Source of the DNA: Desulfatiglandales bacterium
Lineage (GTDB): Bacteria; Desulfobacterota; DSM-4660; Desulfatiglandales; Desulfatiglandaceae
Assembly: GCA_963662465.1 (NCBI GenBank)
Contig: OY759599.1
Location: 5,856,001-5,920,000, forward strand
Length of the DNA stretch: 64,000 bases
Reading direction: 5' to 3'
The position numbers and the translations under genes are program-made. How positions within the stretch are numbered: position 1 is the stretch's first letter; each line of letters begins with the position of its first letter. Positions 27,875 to 46,849 of this stretch are shown here, piece by piece. The notes beneath the pieces are model-generated. The model was not told the DNA's origin and did not search any database. It saw only the letters and a list, made by a program, of their open reading frames with translations.

Positions 27875-28805
27875 ATCTTTCAAGGATGACCTGGCGGCCT
27901 TTGAAGAACGCAAACCCCATCTGTTGTTGCGGGCTCGGATGGTTCAGAGTCTTCGGGAATTTTTCATCACCCGGGGATACCTGGAAATCGAAACGCCTCA
28001 GCTGATATCCGCGCCTGCCCCGGAAACCCATATCGAATCCATTCCCGTCCGCGACCGCTATCTGCATTCGTCCCCGGAACTGTGTATGAAACGCCTGCTG
28101 GCCTTTGGTTTTCCCAAAATATTTCAAATTGCCAGATGTTTCAGGGACGGTGAAAGGGGCGGTTTCCATCTTCCCGAATTCTCCCTGCTGGAATGGTACC
28201 GGACAAAGATCGACTATCACGCACTCATGGCAGAGTGTGAAGCGCTGGTCCTCTTTTTGTCTCACCGGTTTGATATGGGAACCCGTCTCCGATACCGGGG
28301 CGTGGATATCGATCTGAATCGACCCTGGGAAAGGATTTCCGTTCAAACCGCCTTTGATCGATATGCTTCCGTTTCCCTGGATCAGGCGATGAATAGCGAT
28401 CGCTTTGACCTGGTTATGGTTGAGGAAATCGAACATCATCTGGGAGTTACGACCCCTACCTTTCTCTATGATTATCCGGCGCCCCTGGCGGCGCTGGCGC
28501 GATTGAAACCGGAGGATCACTCCCTTGCGGAACGGTTTGAACTCTATGTGGCAGGCGTTGAACTGGCCAACGGTTTTTCTGAACTGAACGACGCCCGTGA
28601 GCAGAGGGCGCGGTTTGAAACGGCGCTTCAAGAAAGGGCGCTATTGGGAAAAGGCATTTCTCCCATGCCGGAGCGATTTTTGACAGCCTTGAAACACATG
28701 CCCAATGCCGCCGGGATTGCCCTGGGGGTGGATCGTCTGGCGATGATGCTTTCCGGCGCCGACAGCATTGACCAGGTGGTGGCTTTTACGCCGGAGGAAG
28801 TGTAG
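27852..28805 (+). CDS. epmA: EF-P lysine aminoacylase EpmA/GenX
   Basis: HSSPELCMKRLL, FRDGE, PEFSLLEWYR, ELANGFSEL, GIALGVDRL; adjacent to efp. Confidence 0.92.
   Translation: MSHGSRNRSFKDDLAAFEERKPHLLLRARMVQSLREFFITRGYLEIETPQLISAPAPETHIESIPVRDRYLHSSPELCMKRLLAFGFPKIFQIARCFRDGERGGFHLPEFSLLEWYRTKIDYHALMAECEALVLFLSHRFDMGTRLRYRGVDIDLNRPWERISVQTAFDRYASVSLDQAMNSDRFDLVMVEEIEHHLGVTTPTFLYDYPAPLAALARLKPEDHSLAERFELYVAGVELANGFSELNDAREQRARFETALQERALLGKGISPMPERFLTALKHMPNAAGIALGVDRLAMMLSGADSIDQVVAFTPEEV
28738..28766 (+). repeat. 29-bp direct repeat, copy 1 (inside epmA 3' end)
   Basis: TGGCGATGATGCTTTCCGGCGCCGACAGC, identical at 48425-48453. Confidence 0.9.
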
Positions 28806-29142
28806 CCTGGAAGATTGCTAATTTCAGATTACACCAAAAAGGGAATGGGCGAAAGATTTTTCGCTCCAATGGTGTTTCCGGCATCCATCGTGGATATAAG
28901 GCGGGGCAGTTTCTCATTTGTTTGAACCTTGATTTTTTATTCACGCTGCCGGCATCGTCAAGGCAATCAGGAACATCCTTTTTAATCATGGTTCAAAACG
29001 ATACTGTATGGTTGGGCTTCACATCTCAACAAAAATATTCGGCATCCTTCATTTTCCAGTTTACACTTTTGTCCCCATGCATCTCGTTTCCAAGAATGAA
29101 ACTCCGCTGTGAGAGCGGTGTCCCGCCGCGACAGTCGAGGCT

Positions 29143-29170
29143 GTAGAGACAAGGCATGCCTTGTCTCTAC
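29143..29170. repeat. REP-like perfect palindrome
   Basis: GTAGAGACAAGGCATGCCTTGTCTCTAC. Confidence 0.8.
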
Positions 29171-29459
29171 TCACAGCAGGCGCCTGCGATGTATTTTTAT
29201 GGTAAACCCTCATGGCAAGGGGGTTTGCCACCCTGCGGATGAAAATGGCGGCAGAACCCATAGCCCATCTCCTATGGCCTATCGCCTGTTTTCATGGAAA
29301 AAATCCGGAAGGTTTTCGATCCGCCTCTTGACAGGTAGTTTTCGATATCTCCTCCGGCAAATTTTTGGTCCCCGAAACCCTGACAACCCGTCCGGGAGAG
29401 CGGGACTGGTGTGAATCACGACCGTTGGAGAGTATCCTCGTTCTTACGCACTACACTCC

Positions 29460-29488
29460 CTCGTTCCCACGCTCTGCGTGGGAACGAG
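29460..29488. repeat. REP-like hairpin (degenerate relatives near 30150-30300)
   Basis: CTCGTTCCCACGC-TCT-GCGTGGGAACGAG. Confidence 0.75.
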
Positions 29489-29489
29489 A

Positions 29490-29966
29490 GGAAGAGCCGA
29501 ATGTCTTGTGTACCTTCTCTAAATTTGCCATCTTCTCCAACAGCCTTGATTTACACCCGAGCGGGACGTCCACAGGCCTGGCTTGAACGGCATTTGAATG
29601 TTTCTCGGCGGGCGCGGCAAAAACAGTTGTATCGTTACGTGGAAAGATCTCGGCCTTTTTGACGGAAGTATTCTTTCGAATTGTCACATGTTCGGCAACC
29701 GAGGGCCTTTCTTTGACGATTTCGCAATACAAAGAAACGGTATCCAAGGCTTATCTGATTTGATAATCTTTCTGTTTTTTCTGATGGAGTTTTTCGATAA
29801 AATGACTGAGGCTTTCATGTTTTGAGACCGGATGATGATATTTTTGTCAAAAATCCCAGTAAAATCGAAGCCATTTTTTGTAATATGCCTGAAATCGCTT
29901 TTGAACGGGTTTCCGATCGAGAAAATCCTGAAAACGCGTTATGATGTCTGGTGGAACTGGAATTAT
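29490..29966 (-). pseudogene. intI: Truncated integron integrase (N-terminal extension only)
   Basis: AGGAGG then ATA in place of ATG; IIPVPPDI..YKKWLRFYWDF*QKYHH..SLSHFIEKL..KKQKDYQIR*ALDTVSLY has two in-frame stops. Resembles the N-terminus I recall for deltaproteobacterial IntI; divergent from the attC array; no catalytic domain. Confidence 0.6.
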
Positions 29967-30431
29967 GATATGCCCTCCTATTAGACGTTCAATATCAAAA
30001 ATACGCATATTATACAGCCCGCATACACCATACCATTTATCTTTTTCGATAATAATTTCATGTCGGCTTTCAACCGGCAAATCATAATGAGCCTCAGAGA
30101 AAAAGCCGGAAATTAGCAATTCTCATTTTGGAATTACGATCTCCTCATTCTGGTTCACACGCTCTATGTTGGAATCCGCCTCTGGTCTATCTGTGTCTAA
30201 GCCATGAATATACCCAATTTAAACCAGTGTTTTTCGAGTTTTCCGCAGGACGCGGAGCGTCCCAAAACTATTCCCACATTAGAACGTATGAACGAGAGCG
30301 AAAGCCAAGTCCTAATGAGAATTCCTAATTAAATATTTCGCAGAAAATAAAAACATTGACCTTGTGTTTTTCCATCAAATAATTTACAAAATACAGATTT
30401 CAGGGGGAGATTGGTTCGATTTTGTCGGATA

Positions 30432-30486
30432 ATATACGGAAACGGATATTTGATGACAAAAAAAACCGTATAATCACTGGTTGTGC
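30432..30486 (+). other. Candidate attI site
   Basis: R-box GTTGTGC (30480-30486) upstream of the divergent intI remnant; exact reverse complement of the first attC R'' GCACAAC. Confidence 0.55.
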
Positions 30487-30579
30487 TTGCGACACGATGT
30501 CGCATAGTTTGAGTGTATTCATGTAGTTACATGTAGTACCCGGTATGTTCCTACCGGACCCTACGCAGGCATGCTGCCG

Positions 30580-31276
30580 TTGCGCTGATGACGGGGTGTG
30601 AAGCCCTGCGGACAACGTACCGAATCGGGTTCAAATGGCGACAGGAGAACCCCTCCGGGAATCCTCCCCGGTTAAGGGCTAGGGTCGGATGATATGGTGA
30701 AGGTATCTGAATGTCTTTAAGCGTCGATTACAAGCGAAGGACCTACGAGGATTAATAGATCTTATGCCGCTGCCCAGTGTCAGCGGATGTGGTCAGGTTG
30801 CAGGTCTGTCAACTGCCTGCACGGAACTGTTATACCACCGGCGTAGAGGGCGCACCTAAGTCATCCATTGGATCAACTATGTGGAACGTGGAAACCCGGT
30901 CCCGTCGCCCCTTTTGGGGGCAGGCTAACCGCAAGGCATGCTGTTGGCGGGCCGGAGTAGGAGGCTGAAAAAAGCGAATGCCGGGCCGTAATGGTCCGGA
31001 TACCGGGTGAAACATTCCCGGCTCCGTAAGGAGGCAGACGTTCAGCGCGGTGCCCGATCACGTGAACACCGGAGGAATCAGATGAAAGCGGGGAAAGCAG
31101 CCAGTGAAACGGGCGAATGACGGCCCTTGAGGCTGGTGCGCCCCGTGCGCCTTTGGCTATTCTGACAGCTGGCCTGTAACGTGAAGTGGATGCAAATCTG
31201 CGGGAATCCCCACCAGGGAAACCTTTTCGGGGGCTTGAGCCACGTGAGGTGAAAGTCTCATGCGTGGTTCTGAGGG
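30580..31276 (+). ncRNA. ORF-less group II intron, domains I-V (5' boundary approximate)
   Basis: TTGCG candidate start; canonical 34-nt domain V GAGCCACGTGAGGTGAAAGTCTCATGCGTGGTTC at 31237-31270 (AGC triad, GAAA loop, 2-nt bulge); no RT ORF. Confidence 0.85.
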
Positions 31277-31306
31277 TAATAGCGGCATAATACACACCTC
31301 CGTACG

Positions 31307-33394
31307 TTATTGAAAATTAAAGACTTGTTGTTTTGAGTTTCTTGAAAGCGGGCTCTTTGGAAGCCCGGAATGAGCTGCCTTTTTTATCACTTCAGATTCA
31401 AGGTCCTTTTTTGAAATGATCCATGGAGCACCGGAACATACTCGCTTGGCGGGTAGAATCTCATGTTGTATAAGTCTCCAAACTTTGGTGCTGCCAATAC
31501 CCAGCCTTTCGCTTGCTTCAGCTACCGTATATTCTTCTCGTCGCTGCCTCTCTCCTTCATGATATACAGGGATATTATGCCTATTTCGAAATGAACGCAA
31601 CCTTACCGGATTCCAGGTATATCCCTTTGTAGTCTTTGTACCCACACGGTTGAGAAAGGCCACGATGTGTTTATCAGGCATAATTCTAGCCAAATCGGAT
31701 ATTATCTTTTTTGTATCAACATCGGTTTTCAATGGGTAACTGGAAGACTTATTCTTCAGTACCTCCAATTCCGTATGCTCACCCCCTTCCCAGTGAATGA
31801 TTAATTTGATCTTTTGCTCTTCCAAATAAACAACGATCTCTTTGATAACCGTCCGGATTATACGCTTCTTTAAATCCAAAGAGCAACACGGATCATTCCA
31901 TACACGAGGTAAATCTTGTGACAGATCTCTGATCTCGGTCTCTTCCTCAGGGGAAAGCGAAGGGGTGTTCGACCCCATAGCGGTAATCTCATTCTCCAAT
32001 CTTGCTACCTTAACAAGAGCGTCATTCCAATCCTTCTCCAATGTAGATGCTACCAAACGATTATCAGGGTCCACTGCATTGTATTGACGTTTTGCCCGTA
32101 AAGCTTCATAACGCGCTTGTTCCAACTCCAGTTCCCGTTGCCGTTTCACTGAATCCGATTCATGGTTGATTTTCTTTATCGCCTCTAAAGAAGCTTCTAA
32201 TCCTATCGGTGATAATACTTTCAAAAGAAAATCCGTAACAGCCCGGTCAACACGGAATCCACCAAATGATATACACGCCTTTCCTGTCTCGTTACCTCGT
32301 TTGCGGCTACACTCATAACGTTTATGAGTTCCATTACGGCCTTGGTATCGTACAATTAACTTTCTACCGCAATGACCGCATCTTAACAAACCTCCAAGCA
32401 ATGCCTTTCCTCCGCGAACAGCTCCTCTCACCACCGGCCTTTTCTTATTTGTATTTTGAGTTAGTATCTCCATGTTATACTGGTACTCTTCCCATGTGAT
32501 GTAACCTTCATGGTGATCCAATATTAAAACGTCCCAATCCTTTTGTTCCTTACGAATACCCTTCCTCAGTCGCTTGCGCCCATTTTCAAAAGTTACCTCT
32601 GTTTTAGTCCGGCCATAGACGTAGGCGCCGGCGTAAATTGGGTTGTTCACTATATGCGACAAGGTATGAGCAGACGGTAGTTTCCACTCTATCCTACGTT
32701 CCCCTTTACCGCTGGAAACAACAGCAATCTCAATCTGTTCATCTAAAAACCAATGATACACCCGACGAAGAGTACCATATTCCTTGAATTTCGTGAATAC
32801 CAAATCAATGACTTCTTGAATTCGTTTGTCAGGATTCTTTTTCAGCTTATTATCCCTAGTCTTTATATAGGCTGCCGGTACAGTAAGATATAATTCTCCC
32901 CGCTTCGCTTTTTGTTGTATTGCCGCCTGAGAACGCTCCTTTAATAGGCTCAATTCCATTGCACTCATTTCTCCCTTTAAGCCCAGGAGCAAACGATCAT
33001 TTGACACGTTTAGGTCATAAACAGCTCCTTGATCTACAAGAACCGTTTTTTTAAGTGCACAGATCTCAAGCAACGTATGCCACTCTCGACCGTTGCGGGC
33101 CAACCTCGATGATTCAATCGAGAAAATACCCCCTATTCTTCCTTCACACACAGATGAAAGAAGATTCTGGAATCCTTTTCTGTCAACGCATCCCGATGCA
33201 GTTATTCCCAAATCACTATCTATCATCCATATGTTTTTCTCGTTCCATCCTAATTCTTTTGCCCTTTCTACCAAGCCATATTGTAAAAGTTGGCTTTCAC
33301 GATGCTGTAGAACTTGGCCCGGTGTTGACTGACGGATATATATACATGCTTCCCGACTAATATGTTCAGCATTGATTTTATTGCTCATGCTCAT
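31307..33394 (-). CDS. Large serine recombinase with C-terminal HTH extension
   Basis: YIRQS catalytic motif, SRLARN, NPIYAGAYVYGR recombinase domain, LLRCGHCG zinc ribbon, coiled coil, terminal YTVAEASERLGI HTH. Confidence 0.95.
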   Translation of the reverse strand: MSMSNKINAEHISREACIYIRQSTPGQVLQHRESQLLQYGLVERAKELGWNEKNIWMIDSDLGITASGCVDRKGFQNLLSSVCEGRIGGIFSIESSRLARNGREWHTLLEICALKKTVLVDQGAVYDLNVSNDRLLLGLKGEMSAMELSLLKERSQAAIQQKAKRGELYLTVPAAYIKTRDNKLKKNPDKRIQEVIDLVFTKFKEYGTLRRVYHWFLDEQIEIAVVSSGKGERRIEWKLPSAHTLSHIVNNPIYAGAYVYGRTKTEVTFENGRKRLRKGIRKEQKDWDVLILDHHEGYITWEEYQYNMEILTQNTNKKRPVVRGAVRGGKALLGGLLRCGHCGRKLIVRYQGRNGTHKRYECSRKRGNETGKACISFGGFRVDRAVTDFLLKVLSPIGLEASLEAIKKINHESDSVKRQRELELEQARYEALRAKRQYNAVDPDNRLVASTLEKDWNDALVKVARLENEITAMGSNTPSLSPEEETEIRDLSQDLPRVWNDPCCSLDLKKRIIRTVIKEIVVYLEEQKIKLIIHWEGGEHTELEVLKNKSSSYPLKTDVDTKKIISDLARIMPDKHIVAFLNRVGTKTTKGYTWNPVRLRSFRNRHNIPVYHEGERQRREEYTVAEASERLGIGSTKVWRLIQHEILPAKRVCSGAPWIISKKDLESEVIKKAAHSGLPKSPLSRNSKQQVFNFQ

Positions 33395-33411
33395 TTCCAC
33401 CTTTCTTTTCT

Positions 33412-33968
33412 CGAAATGTCAACCGAAAATTGACCTCTTGCGACAACCGAATTTTGCCCCCACATGAGTAATTGTAACCTGCGACGCGGTCATAGAAGGC
33501 TCCGGTGGCTCCTGCCGAAATATCCATTAAAAGAGCGACCATAACCGCACCTTAGTCAGCTTCCGACCAGATAATCATCTGGTAAGTCGAGAAAACCCTT
33601 TTTCGTCGCTAATTCGAGTTCAATCAAATACCCTATCTCGCCTTTCATTTTGATCTGTGAAACCATCCACTTCGGTAACCGAATCGTGACGGGGATACGC
33701 CTCAGATGTTCAGGACTCCTTTTTCGACCAGCGCCTTTTCGACTCCCACCTCTCATTTTCATCGCTCCTTTTCACCTTCAAATTCGTCCAATATTTTTGA
33801 ATACCGCGTACGTTTTTCAATTAAACACCTATTTCTATCGGAAAATAAGCTATTTATGATTTATAGTTACGATTTTTCTGAGTCGGATTAAGCTGCTTGC
33901 TTCAACAACTCCAGTCTCTTGACTGCTTCCAATATCAGACCGCGATTTTACGTTAGTGAAACTACTTC
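33412..33968. mobile_element. Probable 557-bp secondary insertion (IS21-like remnant)
   Basis: 8-bp direct repeat TCTTTTCT at 33404-33411 and 33969-33976; left end has tandem CAACCGAAAATTGACC/CAACCGAATTTTGCCC motifs. Confidence 0.5.
33556..33762 (-). CDS. Small basic putative DNA-binding protein (RHH/BrnA-like)
   Basis: RGGSRKGAGRK...VTIRLPKWM; close paralog at 36261-36458. Confidence 0.7.
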   Translation of the reverse strand: MKMRGGSRKGAGRKRSPEHLRRIPVTIRLPKWMVSQIKMKGEIGYLIELELATKKGFLDLPDDYLVGS

Positions 33969-34123
33969 TCTTTTCTATTTCTGTTACCCTCAGAATTTTG
34001 CCAGAAACCTGACAGAAGCTCTGCAAGGAAATCAATCAATCTATTTCGTGTTTCTATTGGAATTTCGATCGGTGATGGTAAATAATCCCAAAGCCGAAGT
34101 TGATGATATTTTTGTTTCGTCAT
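33962..34123 (-). CDS. Small accessory ORF of the recombinase element
   Basis: GGAGG RBS before MTKQKYHQLRLW; lies upstream of the recombinase. Confidence 0.6.
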   Translation of the reverse strand: MTKQKYHQLRLWDYLPSPIEIPIETRNRLIDFLAELLSGFWQNSEGNRNRKEK

Positions 34124-34442
34124 CTTTCCTCCTTGTTTTCGAATTGACTTCATCAGGAGGAAACGGTATTTTTCTATTCACTATTAAGCAATATAAATTC
34201 TTAAGCGCCCTGATTTCGATAGCGGGTTTTGAGCCGAGGGATATCTTTTCATACTTTGGATTGGTCATCCACGCAGGTATCAATTCATGGCGACCATCAG
34301 GTTTCTTTGTTACAAAACAAGTTTCTCCACGATGGTTTCTGGTACCTACCACATAAATTTCTTCACCGGTTCTTGGGTGAAATGGGTAATATACCCAAGT
34401 TATAAACTGGTTTTGATGGGCATTATATAGTGGTTCTGAGGG
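34041..34442 (-). CDS. Y4bD/DUF5372-like accessory gene lacking its start in the integrated state
   Basis: Frame open from the att core: PSEPLYNAHQNQFITWVYYPFHPRTG...LIPAWMT; start codon and RBS lie at 31286-31301. Confidence 0.7.
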   Translation of the reverse strand, partial: PSEPLYNAHQNQFITWVYYPFHPRTGEEIYVVGTRNHRGETCFVTKKPDGRHELIPAWMTNPKYEKISLGSKPAIEIRALKNLYCLIVNRKIPFPPDEVNSKTRRKDDETKISSTSALGLFTITDRNSNRNTK

Positions 34443-34477
34443 GGCTCGGGGATGGCAACATCCCCCGGCTACCCGGC
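34443..34477 (+). ncRNA. Group II intron domain VI and 3' end
   Basis: Hairpin GGGGATG-GCAA-CATCCCC, bulged A in CTACCCGGC. Confidence 0.85.
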
Positions 34478-34701
34478 CGTCGCAATATGAAGGAAGGTGG
34501 TAAAGCGAAATGTGAAAATTAGTGGATTACGAACCAAAGAGGCACGTTTAGCCTTGTTTCAACTACAAGGTCGAACGACAGTCTCATCAGCGCGGGCAAT
34601 GGTCCTACCCAATGTTTTGTGTTTATTTGGAGTTGTGTGAGTGTCCATAAATTTGGATGAAGCTATTTTGGTTCACTTAACCAAGAAAAAGGAGATAATC
34701 G

Positions 34702-34782
34702 ATGCCTGAATTGATCTACGAATCTGTTGTTTCAATCGCCAAAGCAATTCGCAATAAGAAAATCTCGTCTTTTGAGGTAGTA
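34702..34782 (+). pseudogene. Amidase, N-terminal fragment
   Basis: AAGGAG RBS; MPELIYESVVSIAKAIRNKKISSFEVV is a typical amidase N-terminus, cut by the ISAzo13 end. Confidence 0.8.
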
Positions 34783-35999
34783 AGGGAATTCCCAAGAAAT
34801 AAACTACCCAACTCCAGATTCAATAAGTACATCCCATTTGGGCAGTGTGTCGGAACGTTTAATTCTGTTTTCGTAAGGTTTCATTTCTTTTTTTGTAAGC
34901 CGGATTCCCTTCTTATATGCCTTTTCCACCAACGTGACAATGGGCTTTATCCCTTTCCATGTCATCGTAGATGCCCAATTGACTGCTTTTGATATTGAAT
35001 CCAATATTTCTCCGTTCCAATGTCCCTCCAATATTCCCCAACATCTTTCAACCGGATTGTACTTACTATGATAGGGAGGATAATAAACCAGGCGGATTCG
35101 CAAACCTGTTTTGTCACTGAATTCGGTCATTCTGCGAATGAATTGAGTCCGACCGCTTGCTGAATTCGGACCATTGTCAAGATTGATAACCAACTCGTTT
35201 ATATGAAGATAGGTAATTCTGTTTTTTTCCCACCACATCTCTAAACAGTCAACGATGAAATCACTTGTTTCAAAAGATGTGCCGAAAAAAATAGAAAGCA
35301 TTCCGCTCAAAACGTCAAGAATACCGTACGGAACCAATTTCATTTCGGGATTCATATCATGGTCTTCAGCTTTCTTCGCTTCCCGATCCCGTGACTTTCC
35401 GTTTCTTGAGAACTCGCCTATATTCACTTTTGCCTTGGCATCAATAGAAATCCGATGAGAGTTGGGATTCTCATCAGAGTCACGGTTTGCCTTCCATACA
35501 TTTTCAAATATTTCATCGACCTGTTTTATCTTTTTCGCAGGTTTGGATTTCAGGACTCGTTTCAGGTTGTATCCCATGCGGTTCAACATGTTGATCAGAG
35601 TGTTGTTAGAGGGAAGATCCTCACCGTCGTATCCTTTCTCATCAATCAGTGCCTTTTTGAGAGCTTTTCCTGTAATTCTTGTATATGTGATAGAGCTTTT
35701 CATGGCAGGGTCCGCCTGAGTTTGAGGTTCTGCAAGGGATATTATGTCTGCTTTAATACCGGGAATCGTGTCTTCTGTTTTCTTTTTTCCCCGTCCCTCA
35801 AAATTATCCATGCATCTGATCCCGCTTTCGGCTTCTTTAAGGCCTTTTGTTACACACTCTCTCCCCCATCCCATCTCCCGTTCAGCTTTGTATGCACTCC
35901 CGTTGAAATATTTCCTGGTAATGTCGGCCTGATATGCTCTTCTTTTGTAACCAGTCAGTCGTCTGCATGCATCTTTTATCAGATTTTTTGTTTCTCCGT
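34783..35999 (-). mobile_element. ISAzo13-family element, 5'-truncated (transposase 34804 to about 35999)
   Basis: ISIDAKAKV, INLDNGP, YYPPYHSKYNPVERCW; AGGGAATTCCCAAGAAATAA end; 5' end replaced by the IS21-like IR. Confidence 0.85.
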
Positions 36000-36260
36000 C
36001 TTGGGCGCTAACCAAAATGGAACCAGTTTTGCTACTCCAAACGGAACCAGATATTGCGCACTGGTCTTTTCCTTTTAGAAGGGTTTTCTTGTAAATTTGT
36101 TAGAGGTTGCATGAAAGAGTATATCAGATGGTATTTTAAAAATGCTGGTGAGACACGTAGCGTTCTGGTTGAAGAATCAGTGATGAGGATACCATCAATA
36201 TGGTGATGGCAGAGAAGAGGGGATTAGATTTTTCGGTTAAGGGCAATGCTTATTGAGGAA

Positions 36261-36458
36261 CTATTTGTCTATGTCATAGTCGTCCGGTAAATTCAGGAGG
36301 CCTCCCTTCGCCAATTGATCCTCAATCAAATATCCAATTTCCCCGTTTTTTTTCAGCTGTAGAATCATCCATTTGGGGAGACGAATGGTGAGCAGTTCAC
36401 GTCTCAAATGTTCCGGTTTCTTTCTTCGGCCGGCGCCTACCCGTTTTCCACCTCTCAT
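36261..36458 (-). CDS. Small basic putative DNA-binding protein (RHH/BrnA-like)
   Basis: MRGGKRVGAGRRKKPEHLRRELLTIRLPKWM; paralog of 33556-33762. Confidence 0.7.
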   Translation of the reverse strand: MRGGKRVGAGRRKKPEHLRRELLTIRLPKWMILQLKKNGEIGYLIEDQLAKGGLLNLPDDYDIDK

Positions 36459-36556
36459 TTCAAGCTCCAAGACAAGGTAATTTCTGATATTCGTGTAACG
36501 AGATTCAAACAGACCGGTGATATTCAGACCTCAAAACCGGCCCTTTGGCGAACATC

Positions 36557-37276
36557 TCATTTTCTGAGGGAAGGACCATCAATATGAATGTTGATGCAGC
36601 GATGGTTGAGACGATCCAGCAAGGCATCGACCATGTCCTTTGGTTCAAGCAGCGAATACCATTGTTCAGGTTGAAGATTGGTCGTAATAATTGTGGACCG
36701 ACCGGCTTCATAGCGATCTTTCATGAGTTTAAAAAAGGCGTTCATCTGCTCTTTTTTGAGGGTCAGGTATCCCAGTTCATCGAGCAGAAGCAGGTCATAT
36801 CTGCAAAGGGCATTGAGGAGTTTCGGGGTGGACCGATCTGCCAAAGACGCATAGAGCTGATCCAGCAAATCCTGAACATTATAAAAACGCCCCCGGTACC
36901 CGGCAATAATGGCTTGACGAAGGATCCCCACGGCCAATCCCGTTTTGCCGACGCCGGTTTTTCCATGGAACACGATGTTTTCTCTTCGGCTGATAAAGTC
37001 AAGGCCGGACAACGTCATGATCCGGCTCTTCTGTATTCCCGGCTGAAGATCAAACGGAAAGGAGTTGAGGGTCCATTCCCATGGAAGCTTTGCAATCTGG
37101 ACCCGATAGATCATGCTGCGCTCCTGCCGGAAACGTAATTCCTCAGCCAGGAGATTGTAGATGACCTCGTGAATGGAAAAACCGTTCTTTTCAGCCGAAG
37201 CCAACTGTTCTTCGAGAGCCTTCAGCATGCCTTTAAACTTCAAATCAATGAGTAACTGTTCAATTTTCTTTTTCAT
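36557..37276 (-). CDS. istB: IS21 helper ATPase
   Basis: GKTGVGKT, LLLDELGY, TTN, ALLDRL. Confidence 0.93.
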   Translation of the reverse strand: MKKKIEQLLIDLKFKGMLKALEEQLASAEKNGFSIHEVIYNLLAEELRFRQERSMIYRVQIAKLPWEWTLNSFPFDLQPGIQKSRIMTLSGLDFISRRENIVFHGKTGVGKTGLAVGILRQAIIAGYRGRFYNVQDLLDQLYASLADRSTPKLLNALCRYDLLLLDELGYLTLKKEQMNAFFKLMKDRYEAGRSTIITTNLQPEQWYSLLEPKDMVDALLDRLNHRCINIHIDGPSLRK

Positions 37277-38655
37277 AGATCAAAAAAGTCTCCCGCGATA
37301 TAATCGAGAATAATGTTTTCCAGACGCGACAAATCAAAAAGTCCATATTTAAGCGCCTGTGTTATGGCTTTCAAAAAAGGTTCCCCGGGATAAGTGCGTT
37401 TCAGATGAAGCAACCGACGTAACTTGACCACACCGCGACCGTGACTTCTTTTCTTCAGTTCAGCCACATACTCATCCAGGATGGCATCCTCTCCCGTCAA
37501 CAGCTGTTCTTCTTTTGAAGGGATTCGGGGATCTTTTTTTCTTCGAATGGGAACATGGTGACCGGGCAGGGTTGTTCGGGTGTTGCGTTTATCCAGTATG
37601 CGGTCATGTTCCGCCACTTTTGTGTTTTTGTCGTAAACGATGACCTTGAGCCAATGTTTCTGTACTTCCAGGGAGTTCCCAATCAGCGCTTCAGGGACTG
37701 AATAGCGGTTGGTGTCCAAGTGCACATATCCCTGAACATCGGCTACCCTGTGTTCTGCCACATAGACTGGCGGCTGGTATGCCGGTAAATCAATGAGATA
37801 TGGCTTTTCAATGACATAGGCCTCATCCGGCGTCATCCCTAAAGCCCGTTTAAACTTTTTATCGCTTGTATTCCGGCACCAGTCGATTGCCTGCCGGTTC
37901 AAATCCTGCCAGCTAACAAATGTTCTACCGGGAAGAAAATTGTTTTCCACAAAATGAAAAGGCCTTTCCACACGAGCACTTCGATTGGCGTCTCCTACAG
38001 CATGGGCCTCAAACCGGGTTCCATACATATCGCCGAAGTATTTCATTTCAGGCGCAATCAATGCATCAGGCCCGGTGCCGCCGGCCACAATAACATTGGT
38101 GTTGTCAACCATGCACCGGGAACACACCCCGTCCATAAACTCGAATGCTTTTTTTAGGAAAACCTTGCACTCAAACCGGGTAAAACAGGGGTAATACTGA
38201 ATAAAAATCCTTCGGCAAAAGGCCAGGGTCAGGGACGCGCACTGGGTCGACATTTTTTTCCCATTAATGACAACCAGATGGGGTGACGTATCATGCTGCA
38301 TCTCCTGACCGGGTTTAAAATGGTATTGGCCCGCCCGTCTTTTTTTACGTTCCCGGATCTCGTACTTTCTCATAATCCAGGTCAGACTCTGATAAGGGAT
38401 TTTGATCTGTTGGCGGCTTTCCAGTTCCTCGGCTACTCGCACGGCATTTCCTTTACATTCCTTGAAAAGCTCGCGGATCAACGGGACATGTTCTTCATAC
38501 CGGGAGTTCCTTTGGGGTACCGCCTCTTCGTCATGATCATCTAAAACCTTCGTGACGGTATTGCGACCGGCCTTCAGGGTTTTGGCGATGTCGCGCAAAC
38601 TCATGCCGGTTTTTTTCAATTCCACAATGGCATCTTTTTTGGATTGTCGGATCAT
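37273..38655 (-). CDS. istA: IS21 transposase
   Basis: N-terminal HTH, PGQEMQHD, VDN, VERPF DDE motifs, NRYSVP. Confidence 0.92.
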   Translation of the reverse strand: MIRQSKKDAIVELKKTGMSLRDIAKTLKAGRNTVTKVLDDHDEEAVPQRNSRYEEHVPLIRELFKECKGNAVRVAEELESRQQIKIPYQSLTWIMRKYEIRERKKRRAGQYHFKPGQEMQHDTSPHLVVINGKKMSTQCASLTLAFCRRIFIQYYPCFTRFECKVFLKKAFEFMDGVCSRCMVDNTNVIVAGGTGPDALIAPEMKYFGDMYGTRFEAHAVGDANRSARVERPFHFVENNFLPGRTFVSWQDLNRQAIDWCRNTSDKKFKRALGMTPDEAYVIEKPYLIDLPAYQPPVYVAEHRVADVQGYVHLDTNRYSVPEALIGNSLEVQKHWLKVIVYDKNTKVAEHDRILDKRNTRTTLPGHHVPIRRKKDPRIPSKEEQLLTGEDAILDEYVAELKKRSHGRGVVKLRRLLHLKRTYPGEPFLKAITQALKYGLFDLSRLENIILDYIAGDFFDL

Positions 38656-39536
38656 AATTGGGTCGCTTTCTTGAGTTCCAGTGCTTGTTTTTCTATCTTT
38701 TTCACCCAGGTTTTGAGCGTTTGTTTCTTCAACTGATCGCTTTTTGGGTAATGGACATGCGAAACGGTTTTCACCAGACGTTTGAGAACCGCATATACCA
38801 TTTCAATATCCTTGAACCATTTGCCTTCCGGTCCATCATGAACTTCTTTGGCTTGTTTAGACTGGGTTCTTTGTTCGAGAACTTTTATGAAAAGGGATGG
38901 ATTTTCCAGCATGTGGTCTCGAACAGACCGGTTGCTTTTCTGGTAATGTGCGTAGAAACGGGCCAGTTCCCTTGTGGATAGAGGTTCTTTTTCCAGGTGG
39001 GCCAACAGTTTTTGTGCGTCTTCACCGTTGGCGCGCGCCAACGGCGCCATGACATGGCTGGCAGCCCAGGTTGAAAGTGAGCCTGCAATCACGGTTCTCA
39101 AAATATTTTCCGGCAGGGCTTCAACCAGGTCCAGCCGCCGTTTTACAAAACTCTTGTCGCGCCCTATTCGGGTTGCAATATGGGAGAGGCTGCACCCAAA
39201 ACGCCGATGTAATTCCTGAAGTAAAACAGACTGCTCAATGACTTCCCATTGCCGTTCATTGGCCTTGGTTAAAAGCGAAAACATGGCATTTTGTTCGTTT
39301 TCTTTTGAGAATTGGACACATATCCGGTCCTTTCCACAAGCACAAAGCGCTCGAACACGCAGGTAGCCATCAATCAGAATCAGTTTGTCTTTTTCTTCAA
39401 TAGCCAGGGCCGGAACGATCTGCCCGTAAGTTTCGATGGAATCCCTCAATCGCTTTAAAGCCTGGTGATTCATTATCCGGCAATGAGCGTAACGCAACTC
39501 CAGCAAATGAATATCAACGGTTCGGATGGATTCCAT
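38652..39536 (-). CDS. ParB/Spo0J-like N-terminal domain plus HTH protein
   Basis: SIETYGQIVP, LIDGYLRVRAL (ParB-box-like), IATRIGRDKSFVKRRL HTH. Confidence 0.8.
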   Translation of the reverse strand: MESIRTVDIHLLELRYAHCRIMNHQALKRLRDSIETYGQIVPALAIEEKDKLILIDGYLRVRALCACGKDRICVQFSKENEQNAMFSLLTKANERQWEVIEQSVLLQELHRRFGCSLSHIATRIGRDKSFVKRRLDLVEALPENILRTVIAGSLSTWAASHVMAPLARANGEDAQKLLAHLEKEPLSTRELARFYAHYQKSNRSVRDHMLENPSLFIKVLEQRTQSKQAKEVHDGPEGKWFKDIEMVYAVLKRLVKTVSHVHYPKSDQLKKQTLKTWVKKIEKQALELKKATQL

Positions 39537-39933
39537 ACCCAGTCTCCCGAAAGATTTCCTCTATGGTTTCTCCAAGACTGACCCAATTTCCTTGCCGGAT
39601 CTCCTTTACCTGTTTCACAATCACAGGACGTCTGGGAAGCGAAAGAACCTGAAACAGACGGCCATCAAACCCAATCAGATCCTTGTCCAACAAGCCATCG
39701 CGGGCATCGATATATTGATCCAAATGCACCTTTAAAATCCGGCAGATTCTGTCGTAACCATAATAAGAGAGCCCGTTTTTGTCAGATACCAACACCAGAA
39801 AAATGTAGAGCAGCAGCTCATGATGATTCAGGCTCTCCCAAAAGCCGTTTCTCAAAAAACGATGCTCCAGAAAGCCGAAGCTTCCATTGATGACACGCAC
39901 TCTTTCGGGAAAAAGGACTCTTTTTTTGATCAT
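39514..39933 (-). CDS. Putative winged-HTH protein
   Basis: LLYIFLVLVSDKNGLSYYGYDRICRIL; overlaps the ParB-like gene. Confidence 0.65.
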   Translation of the reverse strand: MIKKRVLFPERVRVINGSFGFLEHRFLRNGFWESLNHHELLLYIFLVLVSDKNGLSYYGYDRICRILKVHLDQYIDARDGLLDKDLIGFDGRLFQVLSLPRRPVIVKQVKEIRQGNWVSLGETIEEIFRETGYGIHPNR

Positions 39934-39945
39934 TTTTTTCTCCTG

Positions 39946-40389
39946 TCATGGATATGGGGTTTTCTCAAAGCCTGTTACATCTGAAAAAACCCTCCCTGCA
40001 TAAGCACGGCGAGGAAAATGGTCCACAACAACCCCGATCGACCCGCAAAAAAGACAGCTGGGTCGGTTCCCCGACCGCTTTTTGGGTTCAATATCACAGT
40101 CTTTTTGAGGTGTTGAACTATCATCACCAGGGTTCAGTCCATTTTTTTTGGATTTTTTTGTTTTTTCGTACAAACGACGGCGCTCTTTCCCTTTTTTCGA
40201 ATTGCGGTATTTCCCCTGAGCTTTCCGGTGCAGCTGTCTTTGGCGTATCCTGCGACATCGTTCCCCACAATAGGCCTGGCCACGCCAACACGACCGACAG
40301 ACGTGAAAAAAGCAACCACAACATCGGCATTGAACCACTCTTAAAAGGACATCTCCCATCATTCCGGCCTTGCAATTGGCCGGAAACAC
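39946..40389 (-). CDS. Cys-rich hypothetical (putative Zn-binding) protein
   Basis: CRCCGC..CRSCWRGQAYC..C and CLFCG clusters; start uncertain. Confidence 0.6.
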   Translation of the reverse strand: MFPANCKAGMMGDVLLRVVQCRCCGCFFHVCRSCWRGQAYCGERCRRIRQRQLHRKAQGKYRNSKKGKERRRLYEKTKKSKKNGLNPGDDSSTPQKDCDIEPKKRSGNRPSCLFCGSIGVVVDHFPRRAYAGRVFSDVTGFEKTPYP

Positions 40390-40724
40390 ACTTATATAAA
40401 ATTGGCGTGTGTGTGGCTTCCGGCTCTATCCGGTGGTCAAAAAAGAAGGCCCGAAGCGGCTACTTCGGGCCTTCACCATCCATTCTACAAAGTAAATCGC
40501 ATTTCCACTTAACCAAGCCTCTGTCTTGGAAGAAGAAAACCAAATCCAAAGAAAATAGATTTTATAAAAATTTATTGAAAAGTAAATCTACATCAACGAC
40601 TCCTTTGCCGCCACTTATGGATCCCTCATCGTCCGCTATACCTGAGGGCCGTACTCACCGGCGGTGACAGCCAATGGTTCAATTTCCATTAGCAAACTTG
40701 GTTCAGTTTTGATTAGCGTTGAAG

Positions 40725-41946
40725 CAAGAAGCTGGATAATGAACTTGCAGGGGGACAAATCCGCGGCTGTCTGCACGGCGTTCCTATGACCATCAAGGAC
40801 AATTTGGATACCCGAGACTTTGTGACCACGGGAGGGACCAAAGGCAGAAAAGATTTTGTCCCCGAAAGGGATGCTACGGTGGTTGCCAGGTTGCGTGCGG
40901 AAGGGGCTGTTTTGATGGGAAAAACCAATACGCCTGAGTTGACCCTGGCTTTTGAAACAGACAATCTCATTTACGGTCGGACCAACAATCCCTATGATCT
41001 TTCACGAACCAGCGGCGGCAGCAGCGGCGGCGCAGCGGCTATTATCGCGGCTGGAGGGTCCCCCTTTGATATCGGCAGCGATACGGGCGGCAGTATCCGT
41101 TTGCCTTCCCATTTTTGCGGCATTACCGGGATTCGGCCAACATCGGGCCGGGTTCCGAGAACGGGTCATATTCTGCCGCCCGGCGGCGTTATGGATGCGT
41201 GGACCCAGATTGGTCCAATGGCGCGATACGTCGAAGACCTGGCCCTGATTCTGCCTGCCATTTCCGGAATCGACTGGCATGATCCCGCAATTGTTCCCAT
41301 GGTCATGGGTGATCCCAACGATGTTGATTTAAAGGGGCTGCGTGTGGCATACCACACGGATAACGGGATCATGAGTCCTACTTCAGAAATCAAATCCGCT
41401 GTGGAATCGGCTGCCAAGGCACTCAACGACGCGGGCGTACACGTTGTTGAAGCGCATCCTTCCGGCATTGACCAAACCTTTGAACTGTTCATGGGATTGA
41501 TGGTAGGCGATGGGGGCGCCGGCATCCAAATGCTCCTTCAGTTGTACGGTACGGATGAACCCCATCCTTGGTTACAGGGGATGATCGCTCAAGCTGAGGA
41601 AAGCCGGATGACAACGGCGGAATATTGCGGATTGCTGTTCAAGCTTGACCTTTTCCGCAGTCAGATGCTCTCATTCATGGAATCCTGGGACGTTATAATC
41701 TGTCCCGTCAATGCTTTAACGGCAATGCCACATGGCACCCTTTCCGAACAATTACCGAGCGTTTCCTATACCTGCACTTATAATCTGACCGGTTGGCCAG
41801 CGGCCGTAGTCCGGGTCGGAGGAACTGCGGAAGGTTTGCCCATCGGGGTACAGGTGGTTGCACGCCCTTGGCGCGAAGATGTTGCATTGAAAGTGGCGCG
41901 ATTCCTGGAAAACCAATTCGGTGGATGGGTAAAACCGGAAATTTAG
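40725..41946 (+). pseudogene. Amidase (amidase-signature family), C-terminal part
   Basis: Frame open from the IR: KKLDNELAGGQIRGCLHGVPMTIKD; GKTNTPE, GGSSGG, GSDTGGSIRLP. Confidence 0.88.
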
Positions 41947-42124
41947 AGCCTTATCCGTTTCTAAGAATTCTGACGCAAAGAACAAGAAAGCGTTTCTCCA
42001 AACCTGAAGAAGTGCTTCGACTGAGTACCTTGAACGTTTTTTGTGACGGTAGTTTTTCTAAACTTTGGGTTGCGGACATAGCCCACATTAGACATCATTC
42101 TTCAATAGAAAAAGGAGGCATACC

Positions 42125-42547
42125 GTGATTGGTGCATTAATTGCCAAGAAAAAGACTGCTCAGGCATTTGAATATTATAACAAGGGAGATCTCAAGAATT
42201 TCCTCGCTGGCTGGCATGATAAATCAACATGGGTCTATCCCGGAAACCTTTCAGTGAGTGGAGAATACAAAAGCAAAACTGAAGTGGAAAAATGGTTCCA
42301 GCACTATATGGATCATTTTTCAAGCACCAAAATAAGCGTAAAAAGCATAATGGTTCAGAATATTTTTGATTTTGTAGGGACCAATACCGTTTCGGTTATT
42401 TGGGATGAAACAGTGACAACTAAAGGTGGGGAGGTACATGAACTGAGCGGCATTACGGTGATTCATCTGAGGTTTGGCAAAGTCGATTGCGCTAAAGATT
42501 ATGTCTTCAATACGGATGAAGAACTGCGGAAAGCATGGGGGGAATAA
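42125..42547 (+). CDS. SnoaL/NTF2-like protein
   Basis: AGGAGG RBS; YNKGDL..W..PG..SGEYKS..GKV....DY pattern. Confidence 0.75.
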   Translation: MIGALIAKKKTAQAFEYYNKGDLKNFLAGWHDKSTWVYPGNLSVSGEYKSKTEVEKWFQHYMDHFSSTKISVKSIMVQNIFDFVGTNTVSVIWDETVTTKGGEVHELSGITVIHLRFGKVDCAKDYVFNTDEELRKAWGE

Positions 42548-42709
42548 ACGTTTCCCCCTGTCTTCTTCTACTGTTGGAAATGATGTTCTGCCACTATGAA
42601 TTTTTTGGCATTAATCCTGCGGCGGTTTCATCAAGGTTGGCGCACAGGGCCACAATTTTTGCCTGATTTTTAAAGGCTTTGTGGTCCGTAGCGCATTTGA
42701 GCGTTTGCG

Positions 42710-42795
42710 GCACAACCAAACGCTGCACCAGACGCCTGATACTTGGGCGGTCCCGGCGGGGGCTGGAGGAGGCGCTGGTGAGCTTGTCGTTAGCC
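42710..42795 (+). other. attC site 1 (86 bp)
   Basis: R'' GCACAAC ... CACCAGACGCC/GGCGCTGGTG stem ... R' GTTAGCC. Confidence 0.85.
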
Positions 42796-42805
42796 AGAGA
42801 ATCAC

Positions 42806-43252
42806 ATGAAGGAAGATGATTTTTATCTAAAGGTTGCCTATGCGCTGTCAGGTTGCCAGTTGGTAGAACAACAGCTCAAGCTTTACATTACTGAGGCGCT
42901 TGAACTGGTTGCAAAGTGCATTGGTGGGAAAATGCCTTTCAAGATGAAAGGCGATGATTTCGCAGACTCATCTTTAGAGCGCCTCATTCAAACCTTTAAA
43001 AAATTAAGTGATAATGCAGATCTCGTAAGAGATTTGAATAAATTTAAGGATGAAAGAAACTTTCTGAGCCATAAAGGTATAACTCACTGCTTGGATTATG
43101 AGGAAGAGTTGTTTTACACAACTGCTGAAGAAATGCAAGAAAGGCTCGCAGCTATACAAGCGGAGGCAAAACGCCTAAGAACTGCCATACATTTAGAAGC
43201 CAATAAGTTCAGAGCGCACCTTTGGTTTGACGATATCACAACAAATGGCTAA
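42806..43252 (+). CDS. Integron cassette protein, HEPN-like (Rx4H)
   Basis: Flanked by attC sites, stop inside R''; helical, with ERNFLSH. Confidence 0.75.
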   Translation: MKEDDFYLKVAYALSGCQLVEQQLKLYITEALELVAKCIGGKMPFKMKGDDFADSSLERLIQTFKKLSDNADLVRDLNKFKDERNFLSHKGITHCLDYEEELFYTTAEEMQERLAAIQAEAKRLRTAIHLEANKFRAHLWFDDITTNG

Positions 43253-43308
43253 CAAGGTTTTTGCAGCGGAGCGCAAAAAGCCGCGCCCGCTGAAAAGCAA
43301 CGTTGGCG
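43247..43308 (+). other. attC site 2 (62 bp)
   Basis: R'' GGCTAAC ... CAGCGG/CCGCTG stem ... R' GTTGGCG. Confidence 0.85.
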
Positions 43309-43345
43309 TGCGACGATAGAGCTGCCGTATTGCAAGGAGGTTAGT

Positions 43346-44632
43346 TTGATTATTTCAAGCGAATACACAGTTGTGGATGTAGAAACAACAGGGTTATTTC
43401 CTGGAAGCGGAGATAGGATTGTTGAGATTGCTATTATTCGCCTTGATAAAAACGGCCAGATCGTAGATAGTTATTCGACTTTAATCAACCCCACGAGGGA
43501 TATAGGGGCAACGCATGTTCATGGAATCAGTGCAGTGGATGTAAAAAACGCACCGTTATTTCAGGAAATTGCAGGTGATCTGATTAAACTTATGAGTGGA
43601 GCAGCCCTTGTCGGACATAATATCAGTTTTGATCGACGCTTTTTATATGCCGAATTTGCAAGAATGAATGTGGAGCTACCTGATATTCCATGTTTTTGTA
43701 CTATGCAATTATCTAAGTTAGCTGATCGAGGAGTTCCAAGCAGGAAGCTTGATGTTTTGTGCGAATATTTTGGGATAAACCTTGAAAATGCGCATACTGC
43801 GTATGCCGACGCAAAAGCTACAGCAAAGTTGTTCACCTTGTTTGTAAATCAACTTGGAGGGTGGGAAAGTTTAGGCTCCAAACTCCACTGTATTAAACCT
43901 ATGAGTTCAGATTGTCACTCCTGGCCAGAAATAGAGCCGAGTGGAATCCATTACAACAGAAAGAAGGCTTTTGAAGAAATAAATAGTAAATCAACGTATA
44001 TTGAAAGGCTAATAGCAAGGCTTCCAGTTGGTGCAAGTGATGAGCCTATTACAGAGCAATATTTTGCTCTTCTTGATCGAGTTCTTGAAGATAGGATTGT
44101 TGACGAACACGAGATTTCTCAAATCGAATTATTGGCAAATGAGCTGGAAATGTCTCGAGATCAAGCTATCCTAGCTCATAAGCAATATATGGAGAAATTA
44201 ATCTTAGTAGCTCTAGATGATGGAATAATCTCAAAATCGGAACAATCAGATTTAGATTCGGTGAGAAAATTACTTAATATCACCAAATCACAGTTTGATG
44301 AGTTATTTAAGAATACTATTAATCAATATAAAGAAGATCCCCATTCAAACAAAATTCAACGATCAAATGAAGTTGTGATTGGAAAAACTGTTTGTTTTAC
44401 GGGAACATTAAACTGCACCATAAATGGAAAAATTGCAACGCGCAAGAAAATACAAAATACAGCAAGTGCTTCTGAAATGATTGTTCAAAAAGGAGTAACA
44501 AAGAAGCTTGATATCCTTGTAGCAGCAGATCCGAATAGTATGTCGGGAAAAGCTAGGAAAGCTAGAGAATATGGCGTTCGGATAATTGCTGAACCTGTAT
44601 TCTGGAATATGGTTGGGGTTAATGTTGAATAG
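43346..44632 (+). CDS. DEDDh 3'-5' exonuclease with C-terminal BRCT domain (cassette)
   Basis: VDVETTG, GHNISFD, HTAYADA; VCFTG..VTKKLDILV..SGKARKAREYG BRCT. Confidence 0.9.
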   Translation: MIISSEYTVVDVETTGLFPGSGDRIVEIAIIRLDKNGQIVDSYSTLINPTRDIGATHVHGISAVDVKNAPLFQEIAGDLIKLMSGAALVGHNISFDRRFLYAEFARMNVELPDIPCFCTMQLSKLADRGVPSRKLDVLCEYFGINLENAHTAYADAKATAKLFTLFVNQLGGWESLGSKLHCIKPMSSDCHSWPEIEPSGIHYNRKKAFEEINSKSTYIERLIARLPVGASDEPITEQYFALLDRVLEDRIVDEHEISQIELLANELEMSRDQAILAHKQYMEKLILVALDDGIISKSEQSDLDSVRKLLNITKSQFDELFKNTINQYKEDPHSNKIQRSNEVVIGKTVCFTGTLNCTINGKIATRKKIQNTASASEMIVQKGVTKKLDILVAADPNSMSGKARKAREYGVRIIAEPVFWNMVGVNVE

Positions 44633-44725
44633 TGATCTTTAGGAATCCTAGACACTGCCCTAACGTGGGCAGGAATGCAGCCTAATCAGTCCACACTTGG
44701 ATTTTTGGACATCTAAAAAAGACAA

Positions 44726-45109
44726 ATGGAGAAGTCAATGGGCAAACGTATTTGGCGATCTTTCCACGAGCCTATAAGGGAAAATCTTTCATTTGAAGAG
44801 CGATGGAGGGGAGCAGACCATGGTCTAATCCTCTGCTGGGAAATTGGGAGAAGAAGAAGCATCGAATCCCCTGAGCTAGCTGAGCAAGCAAAAGATGGAC
44901 AATTGCCGGCACTCGGATGGAAGGGTGGCGTAGCGAAAAAAATCAAACAAAAAGAAAAGTATGGCTGTCTTAATTATTTAGCAGAGTGGCAAGGTCTAAA
45001 GGGTGAAGATTTAGACATTGATTTAACTGAAGAAAGAGAGCTTATCTGCTCGAGAACTGGAATGAAAGTAACATATACAGGCGATTCGGAAAAGTATGCT
45101 AACTCCTGA
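44726..45109 (+). CDS. Hypothetical protein (second gene of the cassette)
   Basis: 127-aa ORF co-oriented inside the cassette. Confidence 0.6.
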   Translation: MEKSMGKRIWRSFHEPIRENLSFEERWRGADHGLILCWEIGRRRSIESPELAEQAKDGQLPALGWKGGVAKKIKQKEKYGCLNYLAEWQGLKGEDLDIDLTEERELICSRTGMKVTYTGDSEKYANS

Positions 45110-45481
45110 ATCTAATACGCTTAGGGTTGGTCCGATCAGATTGAGATAAACTCAATAGAATAGCTCAAAAAACAGGATGTTTTCAGTGCTTAGAAACGCC
45201 TTTTACCACCAAAACATACCATTAGCGAATCTTAATGCACGGGCTAGGGTCGGGCCAAAAATACAGCAATGCATTCATTAGGTTAGCGATATATACGGGA
45301 TGGTTTTGGACCTTAGAACCACCTTTTAGGCCCCAAAACAAGCTTTCAAGACAGCGTGGAAAAGAAGGTGTTGGAGAGGGTACTTGAAGCACACCGGAGA
45401 TGATGGCTTACGGCTGTTTATGACTTCAAAGTCGGTTAATGGTGCCGAATAATGCCCGCGCTACTCAAAAACTGCTAGAAT

Positions 45482-45567
45482 CGCCAACCAAACACTCCAC
45501 CAGACGCCTGAAAGTCCTGCGGTCCCAGCGGGGGCCGGTGGAGGGGCCGCTGAGCTTGTCGTTAACC
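45482..45567 (+). other. attC site 3 (86 bp)
   Basis: R'' CGCCAAC ... R' GTTAACC; homologous to attC1 and attC4. Confidence 0.85.
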
Positions 45568-45637
45568 GTAGGGCGTTATGAGCATTGACGAACTTGAATA
45601 AGGCCATTATACGTATATTTATAATAGAGTATAATAA

Positions 45638-45916
45638 ATGGCATTAAGATTTGAATGGGACGAAAATAAGTCCAAGCTTAACTTAAAAAAGCATGGGATT
45701 GATTTTGAGGAAGGGAAAACAGTTTTTAACGACCTTTTCGCTATTACAATTGATGATCCGGATCATTCGGATTTAGAAGAACGGTATATTGATATCGGCA
45801 TCTCGTCGAAGGGACGGATTTTGGTTGTGTGGTATACTGAACGAAATGAGAACATAAGATTAATCGGATGCCGTAAAGCAAACCGAGTTGAGAGAGAGCA
45901 ATATGACGAAGAATAA
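45638..45916 (+). CDS. brnT: BrnT family toxin
   Basis: FEWDENK..NLKKHGIDFEE..EERY..IRLIGCRKA. Confidence 0.92.
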   Translation: MALRFEWDENKSKLNLKKHGIDFEEGKTVFNDLFAITIDDPDHSDLEERYIDIGISSKGRILVVWYTERNENIRLIGCRKANRVEREQYDEE

Positions 45917-46160
45917 CAAAGAAGATGGATATACTATGCGGGATGAGTATGATTTTTCAAAAGGTGTTAGGGGAAAGCACTACGTGGCCTATCGTGAAGG
46001 CCATACAGTTGTAATAAACAAAGATGATGGCACTCAATCGATTCAGTATTTTAAAGAGGAAGATGGGGCTGTTATGATTGATCCTGATCTAAAGATCCAC
46101 TTTCCCAATTCTGAATCGGTAAACAAAGCACTCCGTTCCCTCATCCAACAACGAATTTAA
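45903..46160 (+). CDS. BrnA-like antitoxin
   Basis: MRDEYDFSKGVRGK..FPNSESVNKALR; overlaps brnT. Confidence 0.8.
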   Translation: MTKNNKEDGYTMRDEYDFSKGVRGKHYVAYREGHTVVINKDDGTQSIQYFKEEDGAVMIDPDLKIHFPNSESVNKALRSLIQQRI

Positions 46161-46763: not shown

Positions 46764-46849
46764 GGTTAACCAAACGCTGCACCAGACGCCTGGAAGTTCT
46801 GTGGTCCTGGCGGGGGCCGGTGGAGGCGCTGGTGAGCTTAACGTTGGGC
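46764..46849 (+). other. attC site 4 (86 bp)
   Basis: R'' GGTTAAC ... R' GTTGGGC. Confidence 0.88.

Follow-up and report, generated by a model that had tools for sequence, protein, structure and literature searches.

Background

Integron cassettes that hold group II introns or insertion sequences (IS) are already known (PMC3001079, PMC8876359, PMC3518468), and a group IIB intron in sense orientation after an attC site is among them (PMC7923331). In the group IIC-attC introns, such as S.ma.I2, the intron lies at R'' on the bottom strand, with an orientation opposite to that of the cassettes, and separates the gene from its attC (PMC3001079, PMC8876359). The IIB intron UHB.I2 lies directly after attC in sense orientation, with a 5' UUGCG and an AGC-type domain V (PMC7923331). 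In veb1 integrons, IS1999 sits in attI1, at the first cassette, where it disrupts attI and lowers recombination (PMC3518468). Degenerate chromosomal integrons and clusters of attC sites lacking integron-integrases (CALIN) have also been described (PMC5371416, PMC7923331), with median coding sequences of 362–575 bp per cassette (PMC5371416).

Here we describe a locus of Desulfatiglandales bacterium (assembly GCA_963662465.1, contig OY759599.1) in a stretch of 64,000 nucleotides, positions 5,856,001–5,920,000 of the 8.16-Mb genome, which is one contig. This stretch is called the window, and positions refer to it unless the genome is named. The DNA from 30480 to the attachment site attC1 is a single cassette of 12,309 bp, the first in a decayed chromosomal integron, and is swollen by mobile DNA. 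An earlier reading of the window from its letters (the original prediction) had proposed a cassette with an amidase and a SnoaL-like gene, later invaded stepwise by nested elements.

The locus has the attI, the upstream intI on the opposite strand, the attC array with complementary cores and the toxin-antitoxin cassettes of degenerate chromosomal integrons, and differs from them in the 12.3-kb size of one cassette; this cassette is an extreme case of a known kind, and its cargo is broken. The group II intron at its head resembles UHB.I2 in its sense orientation, its place just past the core, its UUGCG start and its AGC triad, but it is devoid of an open reading frame (ORF), is split by a recombinase element and lies behind attI instead of attC. 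Group IIC-attC introns likewise enlarge a cassette at an att site, whereas the intron described here is on the top strand after the core, has an AGC and not a CGC triad, and leaves attC1 whole. As with IS1999, a mobile element is found at the first cassette; in contrast to it, the load is inside the cassette and leaves attI and the 7-bp core intact. A cassette of such size, or one swollen by nested elements, was found in no paper by title, and a serine recombinase inserted at domain V of a group II intron in no paper, both within the open-access literature.

Limits and size of the swollen cassette

From 30480 to attC1, the 7-bp core is followed by the split intron, a 224-bp leader, 27 amidase codons, a piece of ISAzo13, an IS21-like element, the remainder of the amidase and the SnoaL-like gene. 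The features are as follows.

29298–29969, minus strand: 5' remnant of intI, codons ~1–169 of a ~512-aa long-form integrase (tblastn, 86–89% to the copy at genome 6844714; translation)
30430–30486, plus strand: attI, crossover between G and TT at 30480/30481 (10 genomic copies, likeness ends at GTT; 3 more crossover motifs in G010)
30487–31276, plus strand: 5' part of the ORF-less group II intron, domains I–V, sense orientation (Rfam RF02012, RF00029; junctions of 14 copies)
31277–34429, minus strand: large serine recombinase element at the domain V/VI junction, ORF 31307–33400 (Pfam Resolvase, Recombinase, Zn ribbon, HTH_17)
33412–33968, no strand assigned: 557-bp insert between TCTTTTCT repeats (8 nt), with a 68-codon ORF (repeats and length; missing from the G174 homolog)
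34430–34477, plus strand: 3' part of the intron, second repeat copy and domain VI (3' ends of the copies diverge after CCCGGC)
34478–34782, plus strand: cassette leader (224 bp) and amidase codons 1–27 (tblastn with the chromosomal paralog; 76% DNA match to the L074 amidase start)
34783–35999, minus strand: ISAzo13-family fragment, 199 bp of the left end including the inverted repeat gone (Pfam, NCBIfam; four intact 1,416-bp copies)
36000–40724, minus strand: IS21-like element of 4,725 bp with istA, istB, ParB-like and helix-turn-helix genes (domain matches; flanks of 25 paired copies)
40725–41946, plus strand: 3' part of the amidase, from ~residue 56 (Pfam Amidase; 74% identity to the paralog at 7.93 Mb)
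42125–42547, plus strand: SnoaL-like gene, 140 aa, frame intact (Pfam SnoaL_2)
42710–42795, plus strand: attC1, 86-nt type, end of the swollen cassette (covariance model, 97.7 bits)

The attI proposed at 30480 proved to be genuine. The 100 bp preceding this position are repeated in the genome; ten copies end at GTT and are followed by differing sequence (an eleventh row lacks GTT), and five of the ten adjoin pieces of one long-form IntI family. The cassette thus starts at the crossover of attI. At its other end, attC1 has the R'', L'', L' and R' boxes and a bottom-strand hairpin; in the fold the L box and the stem pair, with an energy not better than that of shuffled sequences (z -0.06).

The complementarity of the two cores, first noted over 7 bp, was confirmed and lengthened. 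GTTGTGC (30480–30486) is the reverse complement of GCACAAC in attC1 (42710–42716), and addition of the two bases that follow the intron (34478–34479) gives a match of 9 nt with CGGCACAAC at 42708–42716. With the intron discounted, the head therefore pairs with R'' of attC1 across the insertion point. Among 4,240 mismatched pairs of sites, 164 reach 7 nt and 48 (1.1%) reach 9 nt. All four cassettes of the window match at 7–9 nt. Site 3341292, which was mis-called, was excluded from the counts of core matches and of intron occupancy.

No attC was found between attI and attC1 by any of three scans, which include the sensitive scan that the original prediction had called for. The generic scan gave no match in 30480–42700 and recovered three of the four attC of the window (it misses attC3). 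With a covariance model built from 33 attC of the source genome and run with filters off, the four real attC had E≤2e-4, and the best match inside the interval reached E=1.4. Three Nhmmer profiles, one per attC size class (short, 86-nt and 131-nt), built after removal of eight implausible strict matches, found nothing in the interval. These models derive from the attC of the source genome, and a very divergent site could escape them. The identity of attI, the 9-nt core match and these scans uphold the single 12.3-kb cassette.

Of its length, 9,933 bp are mobile DNA and 2,376 bp are not. The original cassette would have measured about 2.4–2.5 kb (~2.46 kb with the deleted amidase codons), in agreement with the predicted size below 3 kb. 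Judging by its cores, the amidase-SnoaL unit would formerly have circulated as a cassette. The swollen cassette is the largest core-matched one in the genome; the runner-up at a match of at least 7 nt is 7,484 bp long, and the median length of the 21 distinct cassettes is 1,691 bp.

The intron and the recombinase element

The whole intron spans 30487–34477 and is inserted 4 nt after GTT, just past the core. The recombinase element in it is bracketed by a 13-nt repeat (31264–31276 and 34430–34442). Seven copies of this element were found in the genome, five in this intron family at the domain V/VI junction and the others in at least two other contexts; element-free alleles exist. The intron with its element is present as a unit at five different cassette heads. 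The 557-bp insert is in all seven copies of the element and therefore did not invade this cassette independently. The predicted stepwise order of intron, recombinase element and insert is thus not borne out. In a tree of 11 rows, two of them partial, a branch that is weakly supported (58/89) and marked by one diagnostic base sets the five loaded introns apart, which makes arrival as a ready-made unit plausible. The recombinase element and its insert may hence already have been in the intron when it reached this cassette, and an intron with these 3.15 kb between its domains V and VI could possibly be spreading as a unit to this day.

One contig of run X8 reads through 34065–34716 without differences; the intron junction is thus also present in a second sample labelled as this organism. 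The ORF of the 557-bp insert (33556–33762) matches no NCBIfam family, and a related small ORF (~68 aa, 71% DNA identity) lies at 36308–36460, in the left end of the IS21-like element. A 129-codon frame without a start codon occupies 34041–34430 and reaches the end of the recombinase element. The GTGCG that follows the attI at genome 3200387 and attC2 of the window was considered as an intron start and rejected.

The broken amidase

All five inserts predicted in the cassette are present. The clean nesting of the two insertion sequences did not hold. Nesting of one IS in another is recognized by a target duplication of the inner element and both ends of the outer one. Here the ISAzo13 fragment retains 1,217 of 1,416 bp, and the IS21-like copy has no target duplication, although 18 of the 25 paired copies in the genome have one. 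The partner flanks of this copy are carried by no other copy in the genome. About 28 amidase codons (residues ~28–55) are deleted at the same place. The junction of the IS21-like element is, judging from its flanks, an insertion with an adjacent deletion.

Elsewhere in the genome, two IS21-like copies in opposite orientation and 0.71 Mb apart (genome 5352463 and 6062590–6067429) share the halves of one target duplication, which suggests an inversion spanning the window and the GC-skew minimum.

The integron integrase

A complete integron has an intact intI adjoining attI, and here only the 5' remnant at 29298–29969 is left, which the original prediction did not include. Its start codon is gone, it has two in-frame stops and it carries a 161-bp insert at 29398–29558; contigs of runs X1, X3 and X4 connect 29397 to 29559. 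The copy at 4.98 Mb (genome 4981268–4982806) has a stop at codon 22, and the 311 aa at its C-terminal end score 367 bits against the integron-integrase model TIGR02249 (cut-off 265). The other copies of this family are split or truncated, and all five seen in the genome are broken. The genome also has three intact IntI genes of two other types, with different attI sequences. An IntI is generally specific for its own attI. The long-form family has a ~200-aa N-terminal extension, and several of its ten attI are without a nearby intI piece. A promoter scan near attI gave four sites where 1.8 are expected and was not informative.

Relatives of the amidase and of the SnoaL-like gene

Homologous amidases were collected from 56 metagenome and 39 genome loci. 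Amidases of this subfamily adjoin attC-like sites in two of the 56 metagenome loci (L059 and L108; covariance model). The L059 amidase begins 26 bp after the attC-like site (fold z -5.4), with the complementary core then following; in L108 the attC-like site follows the gene. The amidase family thus appears to travel in cassettes, which supports the kind of cassette proposed here, not the exact amidase-SnoaL unit. The generic attC scan flagged nothing in the flanks of the 95 loci, and is insensitive (it missed L059, L108, where the gene end was misjudged, and attC3 of the window). In the 39 genome loci the covariance model gave two weak matches, with E=0.13 (inside the amidase gene) and E=0.43. 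A scan of metagenome contigs for SnoaL gave 35 pattern matches, none of which was confirmed.

How the cassette came to adjoin attI

Most simply, the intron would have inserted behind an attC, and the cassette head would have come to attI later through IntI, which needs only the loss of upstream cassettes. The putative exon-binding site EBS2 of the intron, ACAAGC, can pair along its whole length with the attC spacer GCTTGT, but at attI a single one of the six positions fits; the spacer of attC1 itself is a perfect intron-binding site (IBS2). The putative EBS1 loop carries GTCAAC, and the EBS1 hairpin folds; both EBS motifs were read from the sequence. Among 84 attC scored, introns follow 19 of the 47 with an IBS2 match of at least 4/6 and one of the 37 with less (p=5e-5; the sites are not independent). 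Introns of three families are also found at four of the ten attI of this family (match 1/6; p=0.005 against 1/37, the sites again not being independent), and this excess at mismatched attI suggests IntI recombination after the intron had landed. The same counts can be turned to direct homing at attI via IBS1 alone or through protein recognition, with the position recording no IntI event: occupancy of this attI family equals that of matching attC (4/10 and 19/47, p=1.0), the junction is irregular at two of the four occupied attI (+2 and +4), and in L132 and L134, from other genomes, the upstream sequence is not attC-like. However, attC lacking the IBS2 match are nearly never used, and introns are found at none of five attI of other families and none of three G010 copies (small numbers); we regard direct homing as unlikely. 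IntI might, on the other hand, have done more than remove a neighbour, and have excised the intron-loaded cassette as a circle (3.2–6.4 kb at that time and up to 12.3 kb at present) and inserted it into attI, with cassettes carrying stacked elements. The mismatch at attI beside the perfect IBS2 of attC1, the introns of three families at attI and the intact 7-bp core all fit such an event, and intron-free cassettes recur across many arrays, which means that IntI has been active. Yet the same loaded cassette was never seen twice among 21 intron 3' ends, only one of the 20 intron-bearing attC is of the non-matching type although 37 of the 84 are, so loaded cassettes seldom gained a new upstream neighbour, and no full-length cognate IntI is present in the genome; we give such transport a low probability.

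Several observations weigh against our account as a whole. EBS2 is assigned by complementarity alone, and the intron junction is irregular, at GTT+4 where most copies have +3. Of the 66 pairs of consecutive sites in the genome, no more than 28 match over at least 7 nt, which means either a loose rule or missed attC. The search for an uninterrupted amidase-SnoaL cassette in relatives came out negative: a DNA search of 208 other genomes found no intact pair and only separate homologs, in three; none of the 95 amidase loci has a SnoaL gene; and SnoaL relatives, found in 3 of 60 genomes, lie beside neither attC nor amidase. The amidase 3' part has 54% GC, as against 40–42% in other cassette genes. 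Finally, the cassette head agrees over 12 nt with the attC at genome 447864, exceeding the 9 nt shared with attC1, so the core start is common to other cassettes. The head and attC1 could then come from different cassettes, or a chromosomal amidase-SnoaL pair could have been captured by deletion or by attG-type recombination. Both attG insertion and imprecise cassette excision are on record (bioRxiv 10.1101/2022.09.11.507474), and besides the GC content a short chromosomal repeat in the amidase-SnoaL spacer would agree with such an origin. Against it stand the 9-nt match of the cassette with its own attC, the two colinear amidase pieces with no further amidase fragment in the genome, the leader and trailer, for which no other match was found, and the association of the amidase family with cassettes elsewhere; we consider a hybrid cassette decidedly unlikely. 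Overall, the first cassette of a decayed integron, loaded by inserts and later frozen, is the best explanation and in our view a probable one.

The history would then run as follows. An amidase-SnoaL cassette of 2.4–2.5 kb would have been positioned behind an attC, and the sense ORF-less intron, perhaps already bearing the recombinase element with its 557-bp insert, would have reverse-spliced into the cassette core, with IBS2 provided by the attC spacer and IBS1 by the GTT core. IntI recombination at GTT would have set the cassette head against attI, most simply by excision of the upstream cassette or cassettes, otherwise by excision and re-integration of the loaded cassette. At an undated time ISAzo13 would have entered the amidase, and the IS21-like element would have landed in or next to it, accompanied by a deletion of the left end of ISAzo13 and ~28 codons. 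With the decay of intI the cassette, its amidase broken, would have become the frozen sink of mobile DNA seen today.

If only the anatomy holds, cassette boundaries outlast a fivefold swelling, so that integron annotation that works with a distance limit can cut such arrays apart. A real IBS2 mismatch would place IntI activity in time with respect to the arrival of the intron, and such mismatches can be counted in any genome with introns of this kind. If the loaded cassette did move as a circle, integron cassettes ferry stacked selfish elements (a 4-kb intron-plus-recombinase unit, 12.3 kb at the limit) and the move can still be read from the EBS2 mismatch at attI.

Present mobility

Both recombination cores are intact, and excision of the cassette today is therefore formally possible and probably rare. 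As the first cassette it would leave by attI × attC recombination, which requires the cognate IntI, of which no full-length copy survives; such excision has been described for class 1 integrons (PMC3518468). For one attC pair, excision was ~20-fold lower at 3 kb, the longest distance tested, than at 60 bp, and it was lower with the attC bottom strands on the leading-strand template (PMC5371416). The GC-skew minimum at 5.77 Mb would place the array in the low-excision orientation. The cassette is a natural substrate for asking the length limit of IntI beyond these 3 kb. No joint of attI to cassette 2 and no circle joint was among 15 of the 48 joints in contigs of 4 of 19 runs, which is uninformative as contigs drop rare forms. 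Contigs of run X8 do not cover the SnoaL-like gene and most of the amidase 3' part, which proves nothing.

The remaining array and its flanks

Downstream of attC1 the array continues as follows.

43247–46849, plus strand: remaining array, attC2–attC4
43247–43308, plus strand: attC2 (covariance model); cassette of 513 bp with an unknown ORF; core match 8 nt
45482–45567, plus strand: attC3 (covariance model); cassette of 2,259 bp with an exonuclease and an unknown ORF; core match 7 nt
46764–46849, plus strand: attC4 (covariance model); cassette of 1,282 bp with a BrnT-type toxin-antitoxin pair; core match 8 nt

A 2,321-nt contig of run X3 spans the exonuclease cassette (43302–45515) with 16 differences. 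The DNA past attC4 (46850–48453), where no additional attC was found, contains an mqsRA toxin-antitoxin pair, a repeated element and a 120-bp piece common to the integron regions at 4.40 and 4.99 Mb.

An exact 29-nt repeat from the 3' region of epmA (28738–28766 and 48425–48453) brackets the integron region. In runs X3 and X4, contigs connect 28844 to 48454, and in G010 28816 is joined to 52927. The integron region looks like a 19.6-kb insertion at the end of epmA; no integrase responsible for it was identified. In another array of the genome (4412357–4425229), a 1,609-bp cassette is present in eight tandem copies immediately after an attI, and its relatives head several other arrays.

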